A stretch of DNA of 50,796 nucleotides, taken from positions 1 to 50,796 of the forward strand of contig JAUWZV010000002.1 of NCBI GenBank assembly GCA_030615105.1, given 5' to 3'. The position numbers were made by a program, and so were the translations under genes. Shown piece by piece: positions 29,646 to 36,100 of this stretch. The notes under the pieces were generated by a model. The model saw nothing but the letters and a program-made list of their open reading frames with translations. It had not been told where the DNA came from and searched no databases. The stretch is from Desulfobacteraceae bacterium (lineage in GTDB: Bacteria > Desulfobacterota > DSM-4660 > Desulfatiglandales > B25-G16). Each line of letters starts with the position of its first letter. The stretch's first letter is position 1.

Positions 29646-30869
29646 ATGAGCAAGTACACAGTTCTAGACGATCGCGATCCCATCGTGTATCAGACCATAG
29701 AAGATCATATGCAGCAGATCGTCGCGGCGGTCCTATCTCGCATAAGGCCGCGGGCGATTATCCTGCGCGGCAGTTTTAGCCAGGGTGAGGGTAGCGTGGT
29801 TGTCGAAGGAAACCGCTTGCACTTCCTCAGCGATTATGAGTTGGTGGCGATCACGCCACATTACCGACATCGCCATTGGCTGCAAACGGTTGCCCGGCAA
29901 ATGACGGCCCAATTGGGAGTGAAAACCAGCATCTCCAGGATTCACCCGAACAATATCATGCGCAACAGCCTGGGCAATTTACCCATCAGGGACATCGCTC
30001 GGCCCACCATCGCTATGTACGAAGTACAAAACGGGGGACGCACACTTTATGGGGAGCACTTGTTGAACCGGGGGCCAGCCATTGATCCCCGTACCTTGGA
30101 TATTTGGGCCGGGATACGGTTGATGTTGAACCGCATGGCCGAGTCGCTAGACCATTTGCCACAGACAAGCACGGACTGGGAGGCACTACACTGGGCCAAC
30201 AAGACGGTGTTGTCCTGCGCCGAGGCTTTGCTTATTGTCCATGGGCAATACCATTTCTCCTATGCGGAACGGGGCCGTCGCTTCGCAGATCTGGTGCCTG
30301 ATCTGGATACAGTAGTGGCGCGGGCGAGCCATCTACCCGACCTGGTGCGCCGTGCGATTGCCTTCAAACTACGTCCCTCCCTCAATTTGTACCCTGAGCC
30401 AATGACAGTGATTTGGCAGCAGGTCAAGCAAGCCTGCGATGCCACATTAAGTTACGTGATCGAAAGGTATCTAGGCTTCTCATTTAGTAGCTATGCTGAG
30501 TTTCCCGAGCGCTACTTGAGCCAACTTAAAATACAAAACAAGATAGGAATGAGTAGGTTATGGCCGTTGCCTGCTCCGCTCTCCCAAAACTTATTTCTCA
30601 TCCTGAAATCTCTCCGCGCCCGGCGTTGCCCGGTATTAGGCCTCATCACTCACGCCACGTATCCGGCCTACCAAATAGTTTTCTCTGTCGTACCGCTAGT
30701 ATTCCTAGGAAGCGGTGAAGAGGTATTACGAGAGGCACATCGTTGGCTGGGGAAGGTAAGCCGCCTTGAGGCACCCCGGGTGGAACATCAAGCAGAGTGG
30801 GATTACCTACGAGGCTGTATTGTGCAGGCATGGAAGGATTTCTGTTATGGTATGTTTGGTGCAATATAG
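29646..30869 (+). CDS. Hypothetical protein, possible nucleotidyltransferase-fold N-terminus
   Basis: An RBS (aaggag) precedes the ATG at 29646, 1 nt after the upstream stop. ILRGSFSQGEGSVV...LSDYELVAI resembles the GS...D.E minimal NTase motif. I recognise nothing in the rest. Confidence 0.55.
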   Translation: MSKYTVLDDRDPIVYQTIEDHMQQIVAAVLSRIRPRAIILRGSFSQGEGSVVVEGNRLHFLSDYELVAITPHYRHRHWLQTVARQMTAQLGVKTSISRIHPNNIMRNSLGNLPIRDIARPTIAMYEVQNGGRTLYGEHLLNRGPAIDPRTLDIWAGIRLMLNRMAESLDHLPQTSTDWEALHWANKTVLSCAEALLIVHGQYHFSYAERGRRFADLVPDLDTVVARASHLPDLVRRAIAFKLRPSLNLYPEPMTVIWQQVKQACDATLSYVIERYLGFSFSSYAEFPERYLSQLKIQNKIGMSRLWPLPAPLSQNLFLILKSLRARRCPVLGLITHATYPAYQIVFSVVPLVFLGSGEEVLREAHRWLGKVSRLEAPRVEHQAEWDYLRGCIVQAWKDFCYGMFGAI

Positions 30870-30877
30870 GGGGCAAG

Positions 30878-31060
30878 GGCAGGAAGGTGGCCAATATACA
30901 ACTCATCAGCAATCTCGATGAGAGCTGCTTTCGTGAGTAGCGTATAATGATGTTGAACGCGGTTCGGCAGTGGATAGGGTTACTGGGCCAATTAGAGCCA
31001 CCGTCGTCGGAGCCACACGTTGAGTGGAACCATCTACGTCAGCAGCTGATCTGGAATTAG
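30878..31060 (+). pseudogene. Diverged duplicate of the 3' end of the preceding gene
   Basis: LNAVRQWIGLLGQLEPPSSEPHVEWNHLRQQLIWN-stop aligns with LREAHRWLGKVSRLEAPRVEHQAEWDYLRGCIVQAW of the 29646-30869 product (11 identities over about 35 positions by eye). An in-frame TAG lies at 30938-30940. Confidence 0.45.
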
Positions 31061-31328
31061 AAAGTTTTCTGTTATTGATAGTAAGTATCTTGGATTATGA
31101 GGTGCAGCTATGGGGCTAGCAGACAGACTAAGAGTTGAGACCTTTGAAAAACTCGTCAGATTTCCGATTTTATGATTTTGTCAATTTTTCAGAAAAGTCG
31201 AAGTGATAATTACAGTAAATTATACTTAATAATTTGACCAATGGTCTATGATAATGCTGCATATTAGCCCTGCAAAAGGCTCATTTTGAAGTGGTTTGCC
31301 CGAATATTGTTCTCCGGGCGCACCCATG

Positions 31329-31357
31329 CCCCGTAGATCCGGAAGGTCGTACTGGGG
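31329..31357 (+). repeat. 29-nt imperfect palindrome, copy 1
   Basis: ccccgtagatccggaaggtcgtactgggg, just past the transposase stop codon. Confidence 0.8.
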
Positions 31358-31418
31358 TCTCCACCCTATACGGTGGCAACCCTTAGTGTTTTTAAGCCTC
31401 TTGTAATATTGTAGGCTG

Positions 31419-31454
31419 CCCCGGTTAAATGGTTTTCAAATTTAACTGGGTAAA
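31419..31454. repeat. Minimal 36-bp copy of the TIR element (two ends separated by 9 nt)
   Basis: The sequence is ccccggttaaat-ggttttcaa-atttaactgggtaaa. It adds 12 in-frame codons (VYPVKFENHLT.) to the transposase C-terminus relative to the IS5 layout. Confidence 0.65.
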
Positions 31455-31604
31455 CTTGACGATACCAACAGTCGAATTTGTTTTTAGTGATGGTAGTAAA
31501 CCGGGCTCGTTTTGCTTTATCATGAAGATGACTGAGTCCGAAATATTGTTCTACAATATAACGTACCTTTGATATTTTTTTATTACGTTCTTTTTCATAG
31601 GAGG

Positions 31605-31732
31605 TTTACCCAGTTAAATTGCTGGAGAATATGAATAGAAAGCTTTTAACTGAAAAACAAATTATTATGAATAAATTAAGCATCTTGATTTCACACCCTC
31701 CAGCAGATGCGAAGCATATTTAACCGGGTAAA
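31605..31732. mobile_element. 128-bp non-coding (MITE-like) member of the TIR element family
   Basis: tttacccagttaaat (31605-31619) ... atttaaccgggtaaa (31718-31732). A second inverted pair lies just inside (ctggag / ctccag). It interrupts the transposase reading frame. Confidence 0.7.
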
Positions 31733-32093
31733 TTTAGCAGTAGTTGAATCTTTGCGCATTATGCCGTCAGCGATTTTATTTCCAGCCAGGAAGTCTCGAT
31801 TGGGTTTTCCGGCATATCCTTTATCAGCATATACTTTTTCGATTTTTTGTTTGGTATGACGGCTGTAAACAGTACAATACGGGAGATAGTTGGTATCGTT
31901 AACAGAAGAAGGGGTAATGGTTGTGGCCAGAATAAAGCCGTGATTGGTATCGACAGCCGCATGTTCTTTAAGTCCGTAATGGGGTTTATCTTTTTGTACA
32001 ACCCAATCCGAGTCCAGATCCCGAGAGAACTTTTTGGGTTTTCCGTTTTTATCCAGCTTGCCTTTGGGAGTATTCATTTTTTCTTTAAATTCT

Positions 32094-32378
32094 TTTACCC
32101 AGTTAAATTGCTTGAGAGTTGAATGTATTATACTTATGTTTTACAAAGTGAAAAAGACAGGAATTTTTATGTCGGTTTTACTAAGGATCTCAAGCAAAGA
32201 TTTGATCAGCATAATAAAGGCATTGTAGAATCTACAAAAGGCAGAAGGCCTTTCAAATTGATTTATTATGAGGCGTGCTTAAATAGGAATGATGCAACAA
32301 ATCGTGAGAAGTATTCTAAATCATATCATGGAAGAATGTTTGTAAAGAAAAGGCTCAAGTCTTATTTAACTGGGTAAA
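32094..32378 (+). mobile_element. 285-bp TIR-bounded element carrying a GIY-YIG nuclease gene
   Basis: The perfect 15-bp TIRs are tttacccagttaaat (32094-32108) and atttaactgggtaaa (32364-32378). The inner inverted pair is cttgag / ctcaag. The ORF stop codon lies inside the right TIR. The element replaces the missing part of the IS5 transposase gene. Confidence 0.7.
32123..32377 (+). CDS. Small stand-alone GIY-YIG (URI-domain, YhbQ-like) nuclease
   Basis: 84 aa: YYTYVLQSEKDRNFYVGFTKDLKQRFDQHNKG...PFKLIYYE...NREKYSK. This matches the Y.Y.L...YVG.T.DL..R...HN.G...P..L.Y.E...RE..K pattern. Confidence 0.8.
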   Translation: MYYTYVLQSEKDRNFYVGFTKDLKQRFDQHNKGIVESTKGRRPFKLIYYEACLNRNDATNREKYSKSYHGRMFVKKRLKSYLTG

Positions 32379-32414
32379 TCTGGTTTTCCAGTTCAGGATC
32401 GGAGTTGATACCTG

Positions 32415-32443
32415 CCCCGTAGGTCCGGAAGATCGTACTGGGG
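32415..32443 (+). repeat. 29-nt imperfect palindrome, copy 2 (same orientation)
   Basis: ccccgtaggtccggaagatcgtactgggg differs from copy 1 at 2 of 29 positions. Here it is flanked by ctg/cag, which extends the stem. It forms part of a 36-nt in-frame insertion (CPSTIFRTYGAG) in the transposase N-terminus. Confidence 0.8.
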
Positions 32444-32905
32444 CAGAACCACTTTTGCAGCAGCATGCATTTAAACAGCAGCATCGGGGGATATGCATCA
32501 GCGCCTTCGCCGCTGGTGCCCACGGTATAGTGACTTAATAAAATGGCTTCAATCCTTGACCATTCAATTGATTTATCCAATTTTTCCATTAGCTTAAGAC
32601 TTCGGTTGTGTTTTAAAGAAGAGGCAAGAGCAAGATCGGCGAATCCTAAGGAGCTGTCCATTTTTTTAAAATCCATATCATCCTCCAAGTGGTTGAATTA
32701 TGAGAATAACATGGCACAAAACGGTGGGTAAATCAAGTTAAATCAGCAGATTAAAGTTATTCTCATCGATATTTTTGGAGAAAATAATCAAAACAAACTG
32801 CACAGATTTTAAGAGAAATCATTAAACCGATGGATTTTAACGGGGTTGTGCAAAGGTCCCGTTGTTTCGCTTCCATATTTGGAAGTATAACACAGAGAAA
32901 TATAA

Positions 32906-33103
32906 AAAACGACTATAACTACTATTCCACCCTATTCACCTAAACTAAATCCGGTTGAAAGGGTGTGGAAGAATCTGAGATACTACGTGACTCATAATAC
33001 TTTCTTTGAAAATCTTGGAGCACTTGAAAATGCAATAATTGAATACTTAAGAAATCCCGCCAAACCTAACAGACGATTAAAATCATTATACTGCATTAAT
33101 TAA
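32906..33103 (+). pseudogene. C-terminal stump of an IS630-family transposase
   Basis: IPPYSPKLNPVERVWKNLRYYVTHNTFFENLGALENAIIEYL is the conserved LP.YSP.LNP.E..W..LK tail. No upstream transposase body is present. Confidence 0.7.
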
Positions 33104-33135
33104 TACTCTTACTATAGTCCGTTGGGCTTATTAAA

Positions 33136-36100
33136 TTACCTCACAACTATAAAGTTCTGTGGTGCATTTGGTGCATCGTCCGTGGGGGTAACTCCATATT
33201 CAAATGCGCCAATGTCGGGACCATTACCATTGTAGGTTTGTGTAGGATAAATAATTTCACCTTCGTCAATGGCCGGACTATTTTGGGTTAGAGTGAAATC
33301 CCAGGATGATGGGTTGGTAAATAAGGGATCGGCAAATAACGAACTGGAAGCGTGGGTGTAATTATCAAAGGCGGTATTAGTGCGTCCGAAATATAAATTG
33401 TTGCCTTTGGTGGTAAATTCGGTTTGAGAGGATCTAACATAGTAAGCTTTGGGTTTATAGGCGATGTTATTTTTAAAAACAGTGACGATTTGATTTGTAG
33501 CGGCTCCGGAAACCATAAAGCTATAAGAATTATTAAAACCAACTACGGTGTTGTTATAAATTTGTGCCTGGCGGACATTGTTATTATAATCATGAGTAAA
33601 AGCCTGGAAACCGTTGTCTGGCTTGTCCGGAGATACGGTATATTTGCCAGTATCAATAACTAAGTTGTAGCGGAAAATACTGTCGGTGTTTACTTTGATT
33701 CCATTAGTGCAGTCTTGGACTTTGTTGTTTTCAAAGATAATATTTGTAGGTGTAGAGTCGTTTAAATCTGACCAGTCTGCTGTGGCTAAACCAGATTTGC
33801 CGTGGGCATCATGAACAAAATTATTTTTTACCAGTATGTTGTAGCTGGCTATGCTGGTTTTCTCGGGGATATCTTCTTGAAGGACATGGATGCCATGACC
33901 ATCACCTTCCCAACAGGGATAGTCTTTTCTCATGTCATAAATTTCACTATCTAAAATTTGAATATTGTGGTTGCCTCCCTCAAGATCTATGCCATCTCCG
34001 CTTGGTTCTTTGATTTCTACATTTTGAATGAGAATGTGGTGACCACCAATGCCGACAGTAATGCCGTCAACATGGGTATAAGTACATGGGGAAGAGCTAC
34101 GATTTCCGGCATATCTGAGTTTTAAGCCGATTATTTGCCAATAAGAGTTATTATTTAGATCGATATTAGAGACGTTGGCAAGACCAATACCGTCGATCCA
34201 GACTGCTTCATTGGCTTTAGCTCTCAGGGTAATCCAATTATTGGCATTACCGCTTTTATTAATATTGACGGCTTCATTGTAAGTGCCAGAGTGGACTTCA
34301 ATAATATCTCCCGGCACAGCTGCGTTGATGGCCTGTTGTATAGTGGTATAGTTGCAACCACCGGTTTGGCATACTGTGATGGTGGGTGGTGGGTCGTCCG
34401 TAATGGTCACTGTAATTGTCAGTATGGCCGTGTCACGGTCACCATCGCTGTCACAGATTTCATAGGTGACTGTGTCCGTGCCGTTAAAGTTCGTGCTCGG
34501 AGTGTAATCGATGCTGTCGTTGGTGGGGTCATTCGGCGTGCCGCCGTTGTTGACAGCAGCGATGCCGTTACTGGGTCCAGTGGTAATCGTGATGTCATCT
34601 GCGGCCAGCTCGTCGCCCCCAAAGTCGTCATTGACGGTTACATTGATGTTGGTGGTGCCCGAGTCTTCCGCCACTGTTGTCGCATCGTTATGGGTGTTAG
34701 GCTCAGATCCCCCAAAATCAGACGGCAATGTACCACCGCCAAGCTCAAAAATTGTCTTGGTGAGGTCTGTTCCGCCTTTACCGTCCAAACCGCCTTTTGT
34801 ATCATAACCACTTTCCACCATTGCAGCTTTGATTCTATCATTCATCGGCCAGGGCCATAATGTTTCGTTTGTAAGTACTCCGTCAACATATCTATATTGA
34901 ATTTTAGCACCGACTGATTGACCGCTTACTTTTGGACGATTTTCTTCAGATAGACCATATTGAAGAATATTGCCGCACTTGCCAACCAAATCAGGATTAG
35001 TTCCAGTAGTATAATGAGAAGGAGCAGAACCTCCATAATCGTCACCAGCATTATTATAAAACATAATATAATCGAAGGTAGTTCCGTCATTTACTCCATT
35101 GTGTGAAGAAATAGAATCTGTCTGAATAATATATTTCATTAAACTACTGCCAACATTATCAATATAATTGGCATCATTCTCAATACCGTTACCACCACCG
35201 ACAAGTGTCACATATTCTGCTGTAAAAGTTTGATTTTTGATGGCAAAATTTGTCAGACCGAATGACACATCAGTATAGGACAAAAAATTCTTAATTTGGA
35301 TATTGGTATTTTTGAATGCGGCATCACTAAACTTCGCAACGACTCTTGGTTTCTGATAGTTAGCATTTTGACTGCTAAGGATATACGCGATATTTCCGAA
35401 AAATTTATAGCTTGTGCCTATCAAGTTTTCATCATCAGCATATACTCCTCCTAATACCATACCTTCTTGAGTTAAATCTGGGTAAGCGTCCCATGTAGAA
35501 ATGCAATTTTCAATTGTCTGATTAGTGCTATTATATGTCAAAGACATTCCAATACCAAAATTTGAAGTAAGCGTGTTTCTGTATGTCCAGCGTGCAAAAC
35601 ATCTCCTGAATGTAACCTCATCAGCATAATAGGATGAGAATGTTTTTCTCGCCTTGCCCCAACCCGCGCAGTCCTCAAATGAAACATTTGACGAATTATA
35701 CACAAAAAATATATTGCAGTTTAATGTCGCTGAAGCGTCCCATCCAATCACTCTCCTTATTATAATGTTTTCCGAATTATTTCGAATAATCATTACGTTT
35801 CCATCCCAATTATTTCCCGGATTAGTCATGTTAAAGCCTTCTAATACAAACCATTTATTGCTATTTAGAACAACCGGAGTGTTTGTACTTTGACCATCAA
35901 TTAGCACATCACCCTCATTCAGCGCCTTTATCTTTATCGGCTTGCCGTCTGTGCCGCTTTTCCCATCAGGTGGATCAATCATCGAGTCAGCTCCAGTGTA
36001 GGTACCATTTAACAGGTATAACGTATCTCCTCGAGAAGCAACACTCCAGAAATCACTTATTTGAAATGAACTTGTTGGCGAACTGCCATCTCCTCCACCA

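Follow-up and report, generated by a model that had tools for sequence, protein, structure and literature searches.

A 281-bp GIY-YIG gene unit that folds into a three-way junction, and a candidate family of very small bacterial mobile elements

The window analysed here is a 50,796-nt stretch of DNA from a Desulfobacteraceae bacterium (assembly GCA_030615105.1, contig JAUWZV010000002.1, positions 1 to 50,796). The element in question is a 281-bp unit that carries the gene of an 84-aa GIY-YIG nuclease and lies, together with a 124-bp non-coding copy and a 36-bp minimal copy, in the remnant of an IS5-family insertion sequence (Table 1). The 15-mer TTTACCCAGTTAAAT, searched on both strands with up to two mismatches, occurred five times in the window, all inside 31440-32378: at 31440-31454 (-), 31605-31619 (+), 31718-31732 (-, one mismatch), 32094-32108 (+) and 32364-32378 (-). 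By chance 0.14 occurrences were expected, and none of 100 shuffles reached five. On the left of the 36-bp copy (31419-31433), a sixth arm differed from the 15-mer at four positions, and its 11-nt core CCCGGTTAAAT still paired with ATTTAACTGGG. An earlier note, made from the sequence alone, had described three insertions with 15-mer arms, an 84-aa GIY-YIG open reading frame (ORF) and a dead IS5 transposase gene, and all were present. The stop codon in the right repeat, the common subterminal sequence ttgct(t/g)gaga and the differing inner pairs of the two larger copies were likewise as it had stated.

Table 1. Features of the IS5 remnant and its insertions (positions in the window)
Feature	Position	Strand	Remarks
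Gene-carrying unit, 281 bp, TACCC...GGGTA	32096..32376	+	5' arm, short leader, 84-aa GIY-YIG ORF
84-aa GIY-YIG nuclease ORF, including stop	32123..32377	+	PF01541, E 1.8e-16, residues 1-71 on profile 1-74/78
P1, 5' strand (left repeat of the earlier note)	32094..32109	+	Pairs with 32363-32378; outermost TT is host sequence
P1, 3' strand (right repeat of the earlier note)	32363..32378	+	Codons 81-84 (Y L T G) and stop; outermost AA is host sequence
P2, 5' strand, GCTTGAGA	32110..32117	+	Pairs with 32188-32195
P2, 3' strand, TCTCAAGC	32188..32195	+	Inside the ORF, codons 22-25 (D L K Q)
P3, 5' strand, AGATTTGAT	32198..32206	+	Codons 26-28 (R F D/E); pairs with 32354-32362
P3, 3' strand, CTCAAGTCT	32354..32362	+	Codons 78-80 (L K S)
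124-bp non-coding derivative	31607..31730	+	The earlier note's 128-bp copy minus host TT/AA; P1, P2', P3'
36-bp minimal copy	31419..31454	.	P1 only, 9-nt loop; one end degenerate or truncated
IS5-family insertion sequence remnant, host of all copies	31150..32858	-	Pfam DUF772 and DDE_Tnp_1; blastn to L083
Unrelated 35-nt hairpin repeat, CTGCCCC AGTACGATCTTCCGGACCTAC GGGGCAG	32412..32446	-	Replaces 2 nt; +33 nt net in frame, transposase N-terminus
Unrelated hairpin repeat, second copy	31327-31357		Just past the transposase stop codon

The transposase reading frame lay in pieces (32688-32379, 32093-31733, 31604-31455 and 31418 to about 31360), and the remnant, with four interruptions, was 92-94% identical by blastn to the intact 355-aa IS5 copy of locus L083. 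When the pieces were joined and the absent part was borrowed from a related locus, the transposase was 355 aa long, which is the length of hundreds of intact IS5 transposases, with identity of up to 87%. The arms were not IS5 termini, so they are not the ends of nested IS5 copies, a possibility that the earlier note had raised.

The intact IS5 copy of locus L082 holds the empty site of the 124-bp copy, ACT ACT GCT AAA TTA ACC TCC TAT GAA AAA. The filled counterpart in the window reads ACTACTGCTAAATT[TACCCGG...CTGGGTA]AACCTCCTATGAAAAA. Comparison of the empty form GCTAAATTAACCTCC with the filled form GCTAAATT[...]AACCTCC showed that nothing was duplicated, which agrees with the lack of a target-site duplication in the earlier note. 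The element therefore runs from TACCC to GGGTA and sits in the centre of TTAA. The repeats that marked out the earlier 285-bp and 128-bp extents were real, but the outer TT and AA are host sequence, so each end of the true element lies 2 nt further in. The stop codon TAA of the nuclease ORF lies in the right arm, and its final A (32377) is also host sequence. The boundaries of the 281-bp unit were obtained from the comparison of empty and filled homologous IS5 copies, together with the in-frame restoration of host genes at other loci. The 36-bp copy added 36 nt net and kept the host frame, with 39 nt in the window vs 3 nt in intact IS5 copies.

The presence of the gene-carrying copy in the IS5 gene was as described, but more than an insertion had taken place, since exactly beside its right end the transposase lacked 234 nt (78 codons). 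The IS5 copy of locus L002 had a unit at site 1 (Q-I^N-D) and an empty site 2, and that of locus L004 was reciprocal, with a unit at site 2 (K-E-I^K-K) and an empty site 1. The unit of the window was bordered on one side by site-1 sequence and on the opposite side by site-2 sequence, which indicates that one IS5 copy was hit at both sites and that the interval was then lost. Two units may have entered one IS5 copy at two TTAA-like sites, and the 234 nt would have been lost by recombination between them or by an adjacent deletion. L002 also carried its own short copies at further IS5 positions.

In the other 49 kb of the window no elements were found; all three sat in the one IS5 copy. A single IS5 copy in L002 (360-1760) likewise held one unit and three or four non-coding or partial copies. 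Dead insertion sequences could tolerate several insertions, or they could be preferred targets.

Pairing was modelled on alignment A2 of 78 units from many phyla (2536 cells). In helix P1, formed by the outer arms, the 5' leader pairs with the last codons of the gene (A2 columns 3-18 with 285-300); 91.9% of the cells were paired, and five pairs were compensatory. In helix P2 (columns 19-26 with 110-117), codons 22-25 (CCTCAAGC or ATTTAAAATT) are the complement of the 5' inner arm, which reads GCTTGAGG in most lineages but AATTTTAAAT in the Patescibacteria. P2 was 96.2% paired, and five of its eight pairs had changed on both sides in 27-32 sequences, with GC to AU, CG to UA and GC to UA replacements between clades. 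Helix P3 (columns 120-128 with 276-284) joins codons 26-28 (AGATTTGAG) to codons 78-80 (CTCAAATCT); it was 95.7% paired, and three pairs were compensatory. P1, P2 and P3 together form a three-way junction with almost no unpaired nucleotides at the junction. Overall pairing was 94.0%, vs 88.7% in shuffled sequences (0/500 reached the observed value) and 24-53% with partners slid, and compensatory changes were found in 13 pairs (174 cells). DNA folding of the window's unit alone gave the same three helices (-36.4 kcal/mol, z -4.28).

The codons themselves bore the mark of the fold. Synonymous sites were frozen only at the paired codons 23, 25-27 and 78-84 and were free elsewhere; those of codons 78-84 were almost invariant, codons 23 and 25 used about two of the six Leu codons, and codon 26 (Arg) was nearly always AGA. 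A leader or ORF position was used by 32 of the 33 modelled pairs (66 positions), and 27 paired positions fell in 11 of the 84 codons (22-28, 78-84). The nuclease gene of the unit, as a single strand, thus folds into a three-armed junction, and gene and junction share one sequence in an extreme case of overlapping codes. The compensatory changes across the 78 units bear out the proposal that the arms are under selection for pairing. The compensatory variation previously ascribed to a second inverted pair was also real, but this was not a single direct pair; it represents P2 and P3, which pair with internal ORF segments. Pairing of the 5' and 3' inner arms directly with each other was rejected because the Patescibacteria variants lack it, whereas P2 and P3 hold there. 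The arms are not classical terminal inverted repeats (TIRs) of a transposon either; they are the outer helix P1 of a junction based on coding sequence.

The 124-bp copy in the window kept this architecture, and the 36-bp copy kept P1. In the 124-bp copy, P1 is retained, P2' is formed by TGCTGGAG (31620-31627) paired with CTCCAGCA (31698-31705), and P3' is the mini-hairpin ATGC-GAA-GCAT (31707-31717); the DNA fold had z values of -4.7 (+) and -6.5 (-). This copy had about 40 nt of 5' sequence in common with the gene-carrying unit. The fold of the 36-bp copy was estimated at -7.2 kcal/mol (z -2.5).

GIY-YIG was the only domain of the 84-aa protein, and the unit contained no other ORF. Residues Y3, Y5, Y16, G18, R26, H30 and E50, among them the two Tyr motifs, the Arg and the Glu that are catalytic in GIY-YIG enzymes, were invariant in 31 homologues; so was the C-terminus S-Y-L-T-G, whose codons also make the right arm. 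The AF2 model had a predicted local distance difference test score (pLDDT) of 90.5 and a GIY-YIG alpha/beta fold. Its best Foldseek matches were UPF0213 BH0048 (7.5e-4), Slx1 and I-TevI; the structural alignment with Slx1 had a template modelling (TM) score of 0.64-0.66 and an identity of 32-33%, and that with BH0048 an identity of 29%. A search of PDB with the family profile placed BH0048 at the top (1.4e-6), with EF2693 at 8.4e-6. In the PLSDB plasmids, tblastn found no close relatives, only four weak UPF0213 matches from Firmicutes (35-40% identical). By sequence, the family appears to be related to UPF0213/YhbQ but clearly separate from it. The earlier note had labelled the ORF YhbQ-like. 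The ratio of nonsynonymous to synonymous substitution rates (dN/dS) of the nuclease gene had a median of 0.09 at a dS of about 1.8, so the protein is under strong, long-term purifying selection.

More than 100 relatives of the 84-aa protein at 75-100% identity were found, many of them on short contigs. A scan with one genome per species gave 290 coding stretches for relatives, of which the best 80 loci were analysed. These 80 came from Desulfobacterota, Aminicenantes, Brocadiales (anammox Planctomycetota), many Patescibacteria, Gammaproteobacteria and Bacteroidota, with protein identities of 68-89%. Judged by the closest relatives of both the unit and the IS5 copy, the window is probably from a Desulfobacterales-like genome. 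Other genomes did contain GIY-YIG ORFs bounded by inverted repeats, since 78 of the 80 loci had an upstream arm complementary to the 3' end of the gene. The arm, T(T/C)(A/G)CCCNGTTAAAT, lay 10-35 nt upstream of the start codon and was complementary to the last codons ...TAT TTA ACN GGG TA(A). The 281-bp element is a very widespread genetic parasite.

Gene-less copies were sought in metagenomes as the commonest P1 sequence with an 8-38-nt interior. At least 120 stretches were found, and the matches listed included at least 117 distinct gene-less minis of about 30-60 bp. In 83 of these 117, the interior consisted of exactly two hairpins, vs 0-5 in shuffles, and a further 13 had one hairpin. Among the two-hairpin minis, 69 of 84 had no unpaired nucleotide at the junction. 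The interiors were unrelated in sequence; therefore the shape is conserved and not the sequence, although the 124-bp copy of the window keeps its 5' similarity to the unit over about 40 nt. A mini in L052 (1650-1709), for example, reads TCACCCTGTTAAAT-CCCGC AAA GCGGG-TTCAC TGAAA GTGAA-ATTTAACAGGGTAA. Most listed minis lay outside long ORFs, mostly between genes and on either strand, and minis adjoined units in L002, L011, L012, L016, L026, L052 and L055. Mini-hairpins of the d(GCGAAGC)/C-GAA-G type were present in the 124-bp copy of the window and in L012, L047 and L002; GCGAAGC and C-GAA-G loops have exceptional stability in DNA (PMC13037366). These data support a family in which a small element that carries a gene is accompanied by non-coding derivatives. 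The derivatives had been called MITE-like (MITE, miniature inverted-repeat transposable element), and they are indeed non-coding family members, but an origin by simple internal deletion is disfavoured by the unrelated 30-60-bp interiors.

The terminal pair of the 117 listed minis (L085-L204) was C.A in 38, T.G in 28, C-G in 5 and T-A in 17; next to the presumed cleavage point, pairs other than Watson-Crick seem to be preferred. A few kb from the mini junctions in L116 (5811-6032), L201 (10332-10520) and L146 (6404-6583) lay distant GIY-YIG homologues (40-46% identity), which may belong to other subfamilies with their own arms.

Comparison of filled with empty sites gave the ends TACCC...GGGTA and the centre of TTAA as the target. 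The first outside position was T..A in 79 of the 117 listed minis and 55 of 77 units, and the second in 62 of 117 and 42 of 77, respectively; beyond that the flanks were random. Excision of TACCC...GGGT(A/G) restored full-length, in-frame host genes for PDDEXK_3 (profile 2-117 of 117), IS200-like Y1_Tnp and ORF6N, and excision at IS5 likewise restored the 355-aa transposase. Full-length host genes were recovered in five families in total. Targets belonged to at least five unrelated gene families (IS5, PDDEXK_3, Y1_Tnp, ORF6N and PF05635) and also included 5' leaders; most of them are multi-copy and, apparently, dispensable genes. The filled and empty alleles of homologous IS5 copies, together with the host ORFs restored on excision, showed insertion into new sites. 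Insertion at TT^AA was precise and free of duplication, and it had occurred repeatedly and independently.

At least 25 of the 80 units lay on the same strand inside PF05635 genes (23S rRNA intervening-sequence, four-helix-bundle proteins), at a conserved N-x-x-E-G motif. The junction of the host protein was one residue short there, usually with K instead of the conserved E, and both halves of the split genes had dN/dS near 0.1. Split PF05635 genes among L005-L078 include L056 1314-1944, L013 1184-1971 and L059 1298-1974. Protein P0065 (144 aa; 7 member sequences on 5 contigs) joins GIY-YIG to a PF05635 domain and is probably a unit in which loss of the stop codon has extended the frame into the downstream part of a split host gene. 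At ten loci from Patescibacteria and similar bacteria (L021, L032, L037, L041, L054, L063, L072, L077, L080 and L081), the unit often followed directly on a TATAAT-like box; its stop abutted the start of the next gene (GGGTAA|ATG), with which it was co-oriented. The unit at these ten loci appears to sit in 5' leaders.

Taken together, the three insertions are best read as members of a family of very small mobile elements whose cis part is a folded three-way junction and which are mobilised by the nuclease; we put the probability of this reading at roughly 55%. The junction would fold when the DNA becomes single-stranded. The nuclease would recognise the conserved P1 sequence and the branched shape, and would cut at the base of P1, at TT^TACCC and GGGTA^AA. 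Host functions would then rejoin the ends, so that the element leaves or enters the centre of TTAA without duplication. Gene-less copies, which keep P1 and have small stable hairpins in place of the two gene-bearing arms, would be moved in trans. Slx1 cuts branched DNA. Recognition of a folded strand is suggested because the protein model is nearest to UPF0213 and to this branched-DNA nuclease. Specificity for branched DNA is also known from a further GIY-YIG enzyme, ANKLE1 (PMC7610144). The small GIY-YIG Ssn enzymes cut single-stranded DNA (ssDNA) beside a hairpin, including a stem made of two separate oligonucleotides, and cut neither RNA nor duplex DNA (PMC11893778); as they cut only ssDNA beside a hairpin, they point to the same mode of recognition. 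The GCGAAGC and C-GAA-G loops, being stable in DNA, suggest that the folded form is DNA rather than RNA.

A more far-reaching claim, to which we give somewhat less than even odds, is that these elements form a new class of autonomous bacterial mobile element, the smallest known at 281 bp. A GIY-YIG nuclease would serve as the transposase, recognise a perfect ssDNA three-way junction made partly of its own codons, enter and leave TTAA precisely without duplication, and drive 30-60-bp non-autonomous copies across phyla. As a self-contained mobile element, the 281-bp unit may be the smallest known in bacteria.

Several points weigh against nuclease-driven movement into TTAA. We infer the enzyme, the folded DNA, the position of the cuts and the joining of the ends from sequence, fold and analogy. 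GIY-YIG enzymes act on DNA by hydrolysis and, to our knowledge, none is known to join it; rejoining would therefore be without precedent. In the 778 kb of sequence examined around the listed metagenomic minis no close GIY-YIG gene was found; this is compatible with action in trans, but would not prove it. Mismatches in the helices were G.T in 31 and A.C in 30 cases (31 vs 17 without one terminal pair), giving no clear signal for the folding strand or for RNA vs DNA. In the empty alleles of IS5 sites 1 and 2 the sequence is ATA/ATC|AA and not ATT|AA, so TTAA targeting there assumes synonymous variation. The 36-bp copy and one mini of L002 were at non-TTAA sites. The commonest host site, in PF05635 genes, gave no clean TT^AA reconstruction, and the reconstruction failed for L040 and L074 too.

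Of the other explanations, the one that survives best, though we hold it to be unlikely, is that the junction acts in RNA. It could control the translation or stability of the nuclease mRNA, or mark the unit's transcript for removal from host transcripts; the minis would be RNA terminators, processing sites or decoys, with mobility a question apart. Units are usually on the strand of the host gene, often with the host start right after their stop (GGGTAA|ATG), and P1 and P2 enclose the leader, the ribosome-binding region and the start codon. The excess of G.T over A.C on the sense strand (31 vs 17) when one terminal pair is set aside, and the purifying selection on both halves of split PF05635 genes, would also fit. 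However, the minis carry no gene that could be regulated and still keep the junction, mostly in intergenic positions and on either strand, and their loops are of a type stable in DNA, not in RNA. The boundaries that restore the frame vary among PF05635 loci, which makes a fixed RNA splice unlikely; an intron-like reading of the units in these genes was rejected for the same reason. No relevant Rfam match was found in the window at the gathering threshold or in 31300-32500 at E<=1, and the related Ssn enzymes do not touch RNA.

We regard it as somewhat less probable again that the arms are recognised in trans by another transposase, either DDE or of the HUH type (IS200/IS605 or RayT), with the GIY-YIG gene as a passenger and the short copies as MITE-like or REP-like sequences (REP, repetitive extragenic palindrome). 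Terminal inverted repeats with short non-coding copies, and IS200-like Y1 genes in the same genomes, are in its favour, and the movement of hairpin repeats by an enzyme resident in the host has a precedent in REP elements with RayT. The arms, however, travel with this one gene over at least six phyla at 68-89% protein identity, and half of each helix consists of the gene's own codons, so that gene and cis element are inseparable. The absence of target duplication excludes the usual DDE route, and the Y1 and IS5 genes are disrupted targets, not neighbours.

It is improbable, more so than either of these, that the unit is a free-standing homing endonuclease gene, which would make a double-strand cut at a conserved target and be copied in by recombinational repair, with an inverted repeat that is either a split target site or incidental. 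Classic homing endonucleases are found among the GIY-YIG enzymes (TIGR01453 gave a weak match), many units (at least 25 of 80) share the one PF05635 motif, and no target is duplicated. The protein, though, has a catalytic domain only and no DNA-binding domain, its targets (IS5, PDDEXK_3, Y1_Tnp, ORF6N and 5' leaders) are unrelated genes without flanking homology, the gene-less minis are spread over many unrelated sites, and the covariation of three helices is left unexplained. Least probable of all is a domesticated host system like Ssn/NTS in Neisseria, in which the nuclease restricts or trims ssDNA at dispersed structured sites, for example in transformation or conjugation, and the repeats are not actively mobile: among characterised systems Ssn comes closest, and strong, long-term purifying selection acts on the protein, but the elements disrupt genes and accumulate in dead IS copies, filled and empty alleles differ between close IS copies, and the patchy cross-phylum spread at high identity is that of a horizontally moving parasite.

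If movement by the nuclease through a folded junction is true, a GIY-YIG nuclease class with a folded three-way DNA junction as substrate would join the short list of routes of bacterial DNA mobility, and a new lower size limit would be set for a self-contained mobile element. For the unexplained repeat systems of Ssn this provides a direct, testable link to mobility; the empty sites and exact ends have now been established, as have minimal substrates of about 50 nt. The family also explains assembly breaks and genes split by 84-aa genes or tiny palindromes in genomes of Patescibacteria and in those from sediment and groundwater. Manipulation of ssDNA could benefit from a small enzyme with a programmable DNA junction as its recognition site.

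The IS5 remnant also contained a hairpin repeat CTGCCCC...GGGGCAG of about 31-35 nt, unrelated to the elements and not listed in the earlier note. At up to three mismatches it had two copies in the window, with 0 expected, and it occurred nowhere else in the window; of 84 loci compared, L001 alone had it, and L001 is the window's own DNA.

By its published description, the closest described system appears to be that of the Ssn nucleases and their NTS/SRM hairpin repeats (Chenal et al., Nat Commun 2025, PMC11893778). Its authors described such repeats on either side of small GIY-YIG genes and noted a likeness to an insertion sequence, but did not show mobility. Both systems have a single-domain GIY-YIG protein of less than 100 aa, a gene bracketed by stem-forming sequences and dispersed gene-less copies, and the 84-aa protein agrees in size and domain content with the Ssn family (CDD cd10448), whose members are single-domain GIY-YIG proteins of less than 150 aa. 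In Ssn, each flank is a complete hairpin of 20-50 nt, whereas here the gene stands between the halves of a single stem, coding sequence forms two of the three helices, and the derivatives are junctions and not hairpins. Precise insertion sites and empty alleles are shown here, and not for Ssn. The SRM pattern (HGTCWYN0-2YYVSBRHN0-5WNVSBRGN0-2RNCYNB), which matches the NTS control, had no match in 30800-33200 of the window and in none of 124 minis; the whole window had one match, with 0.2 expected. In the literature searched, only the Ssn paper (PMC11893778) was relevant to GIY-YIG genes with repeats. The earlier remark that such genes were not described as cargo of TIR elements thus holds as far as other papers were not found, but not for Ssn genes with flanking hairpin repeats, known since 2025.

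UPF0213 proteins (YhbQ, BH0048) and Slx1 gave the best structural and sequence matches. Slx1, however, is a multi-domain eukaryotic repair enzyme with the partner Slx4, and UPF0213 genes are single-copy and not known to be enclosed by repeats. With IS200/IS605 and REP/RayT elements the family shares the lack of target duplication, a short specific target, short palindromic non-autonomous relatives and, presumably, folded ssDNA ends. IS200/IS605 elements have a HUH Y1 transposase, a covalent intermediate and separate hairpins for each end, in contrast to a hydrolytic GIY-YIG enzyme and one closing junction, and the 281-bp element is about 2.5 times smaller than IS200. An IS200/IS605 identity was rejected, as no HUH/Y1_Tnp was present in the unit and Y1 genes were found only as disrupted targets. 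MITEs and TIR transposons also have terminal inverted repeats and short non-coding copies, but the minis of about 30-60 bp are unrelated to their parent inside, the 124-bp copy keeping 5' similarity. A DDE/TIR transposon identity was rejected in view of the missing target duplication and the absence of a DDE enzyme from the unit, despite the inverted repeats. The TTAA preference is shared with piggyBac, which duplicates TTAA, unlike the elements described here. The identity of a classical homing endonuclease gene was rejected on the lack of a DNA-binding domain and the unrelated targets. Integron attC and other folded ssDNA recombination sites likewise keep their fold while their interiors vary freely; attC, however, forms a bulged hairpin at a cassette's 3' end and serves a tyrosine recombinase, whereas here a perfect three-way junction is built around its own nuclease gene.

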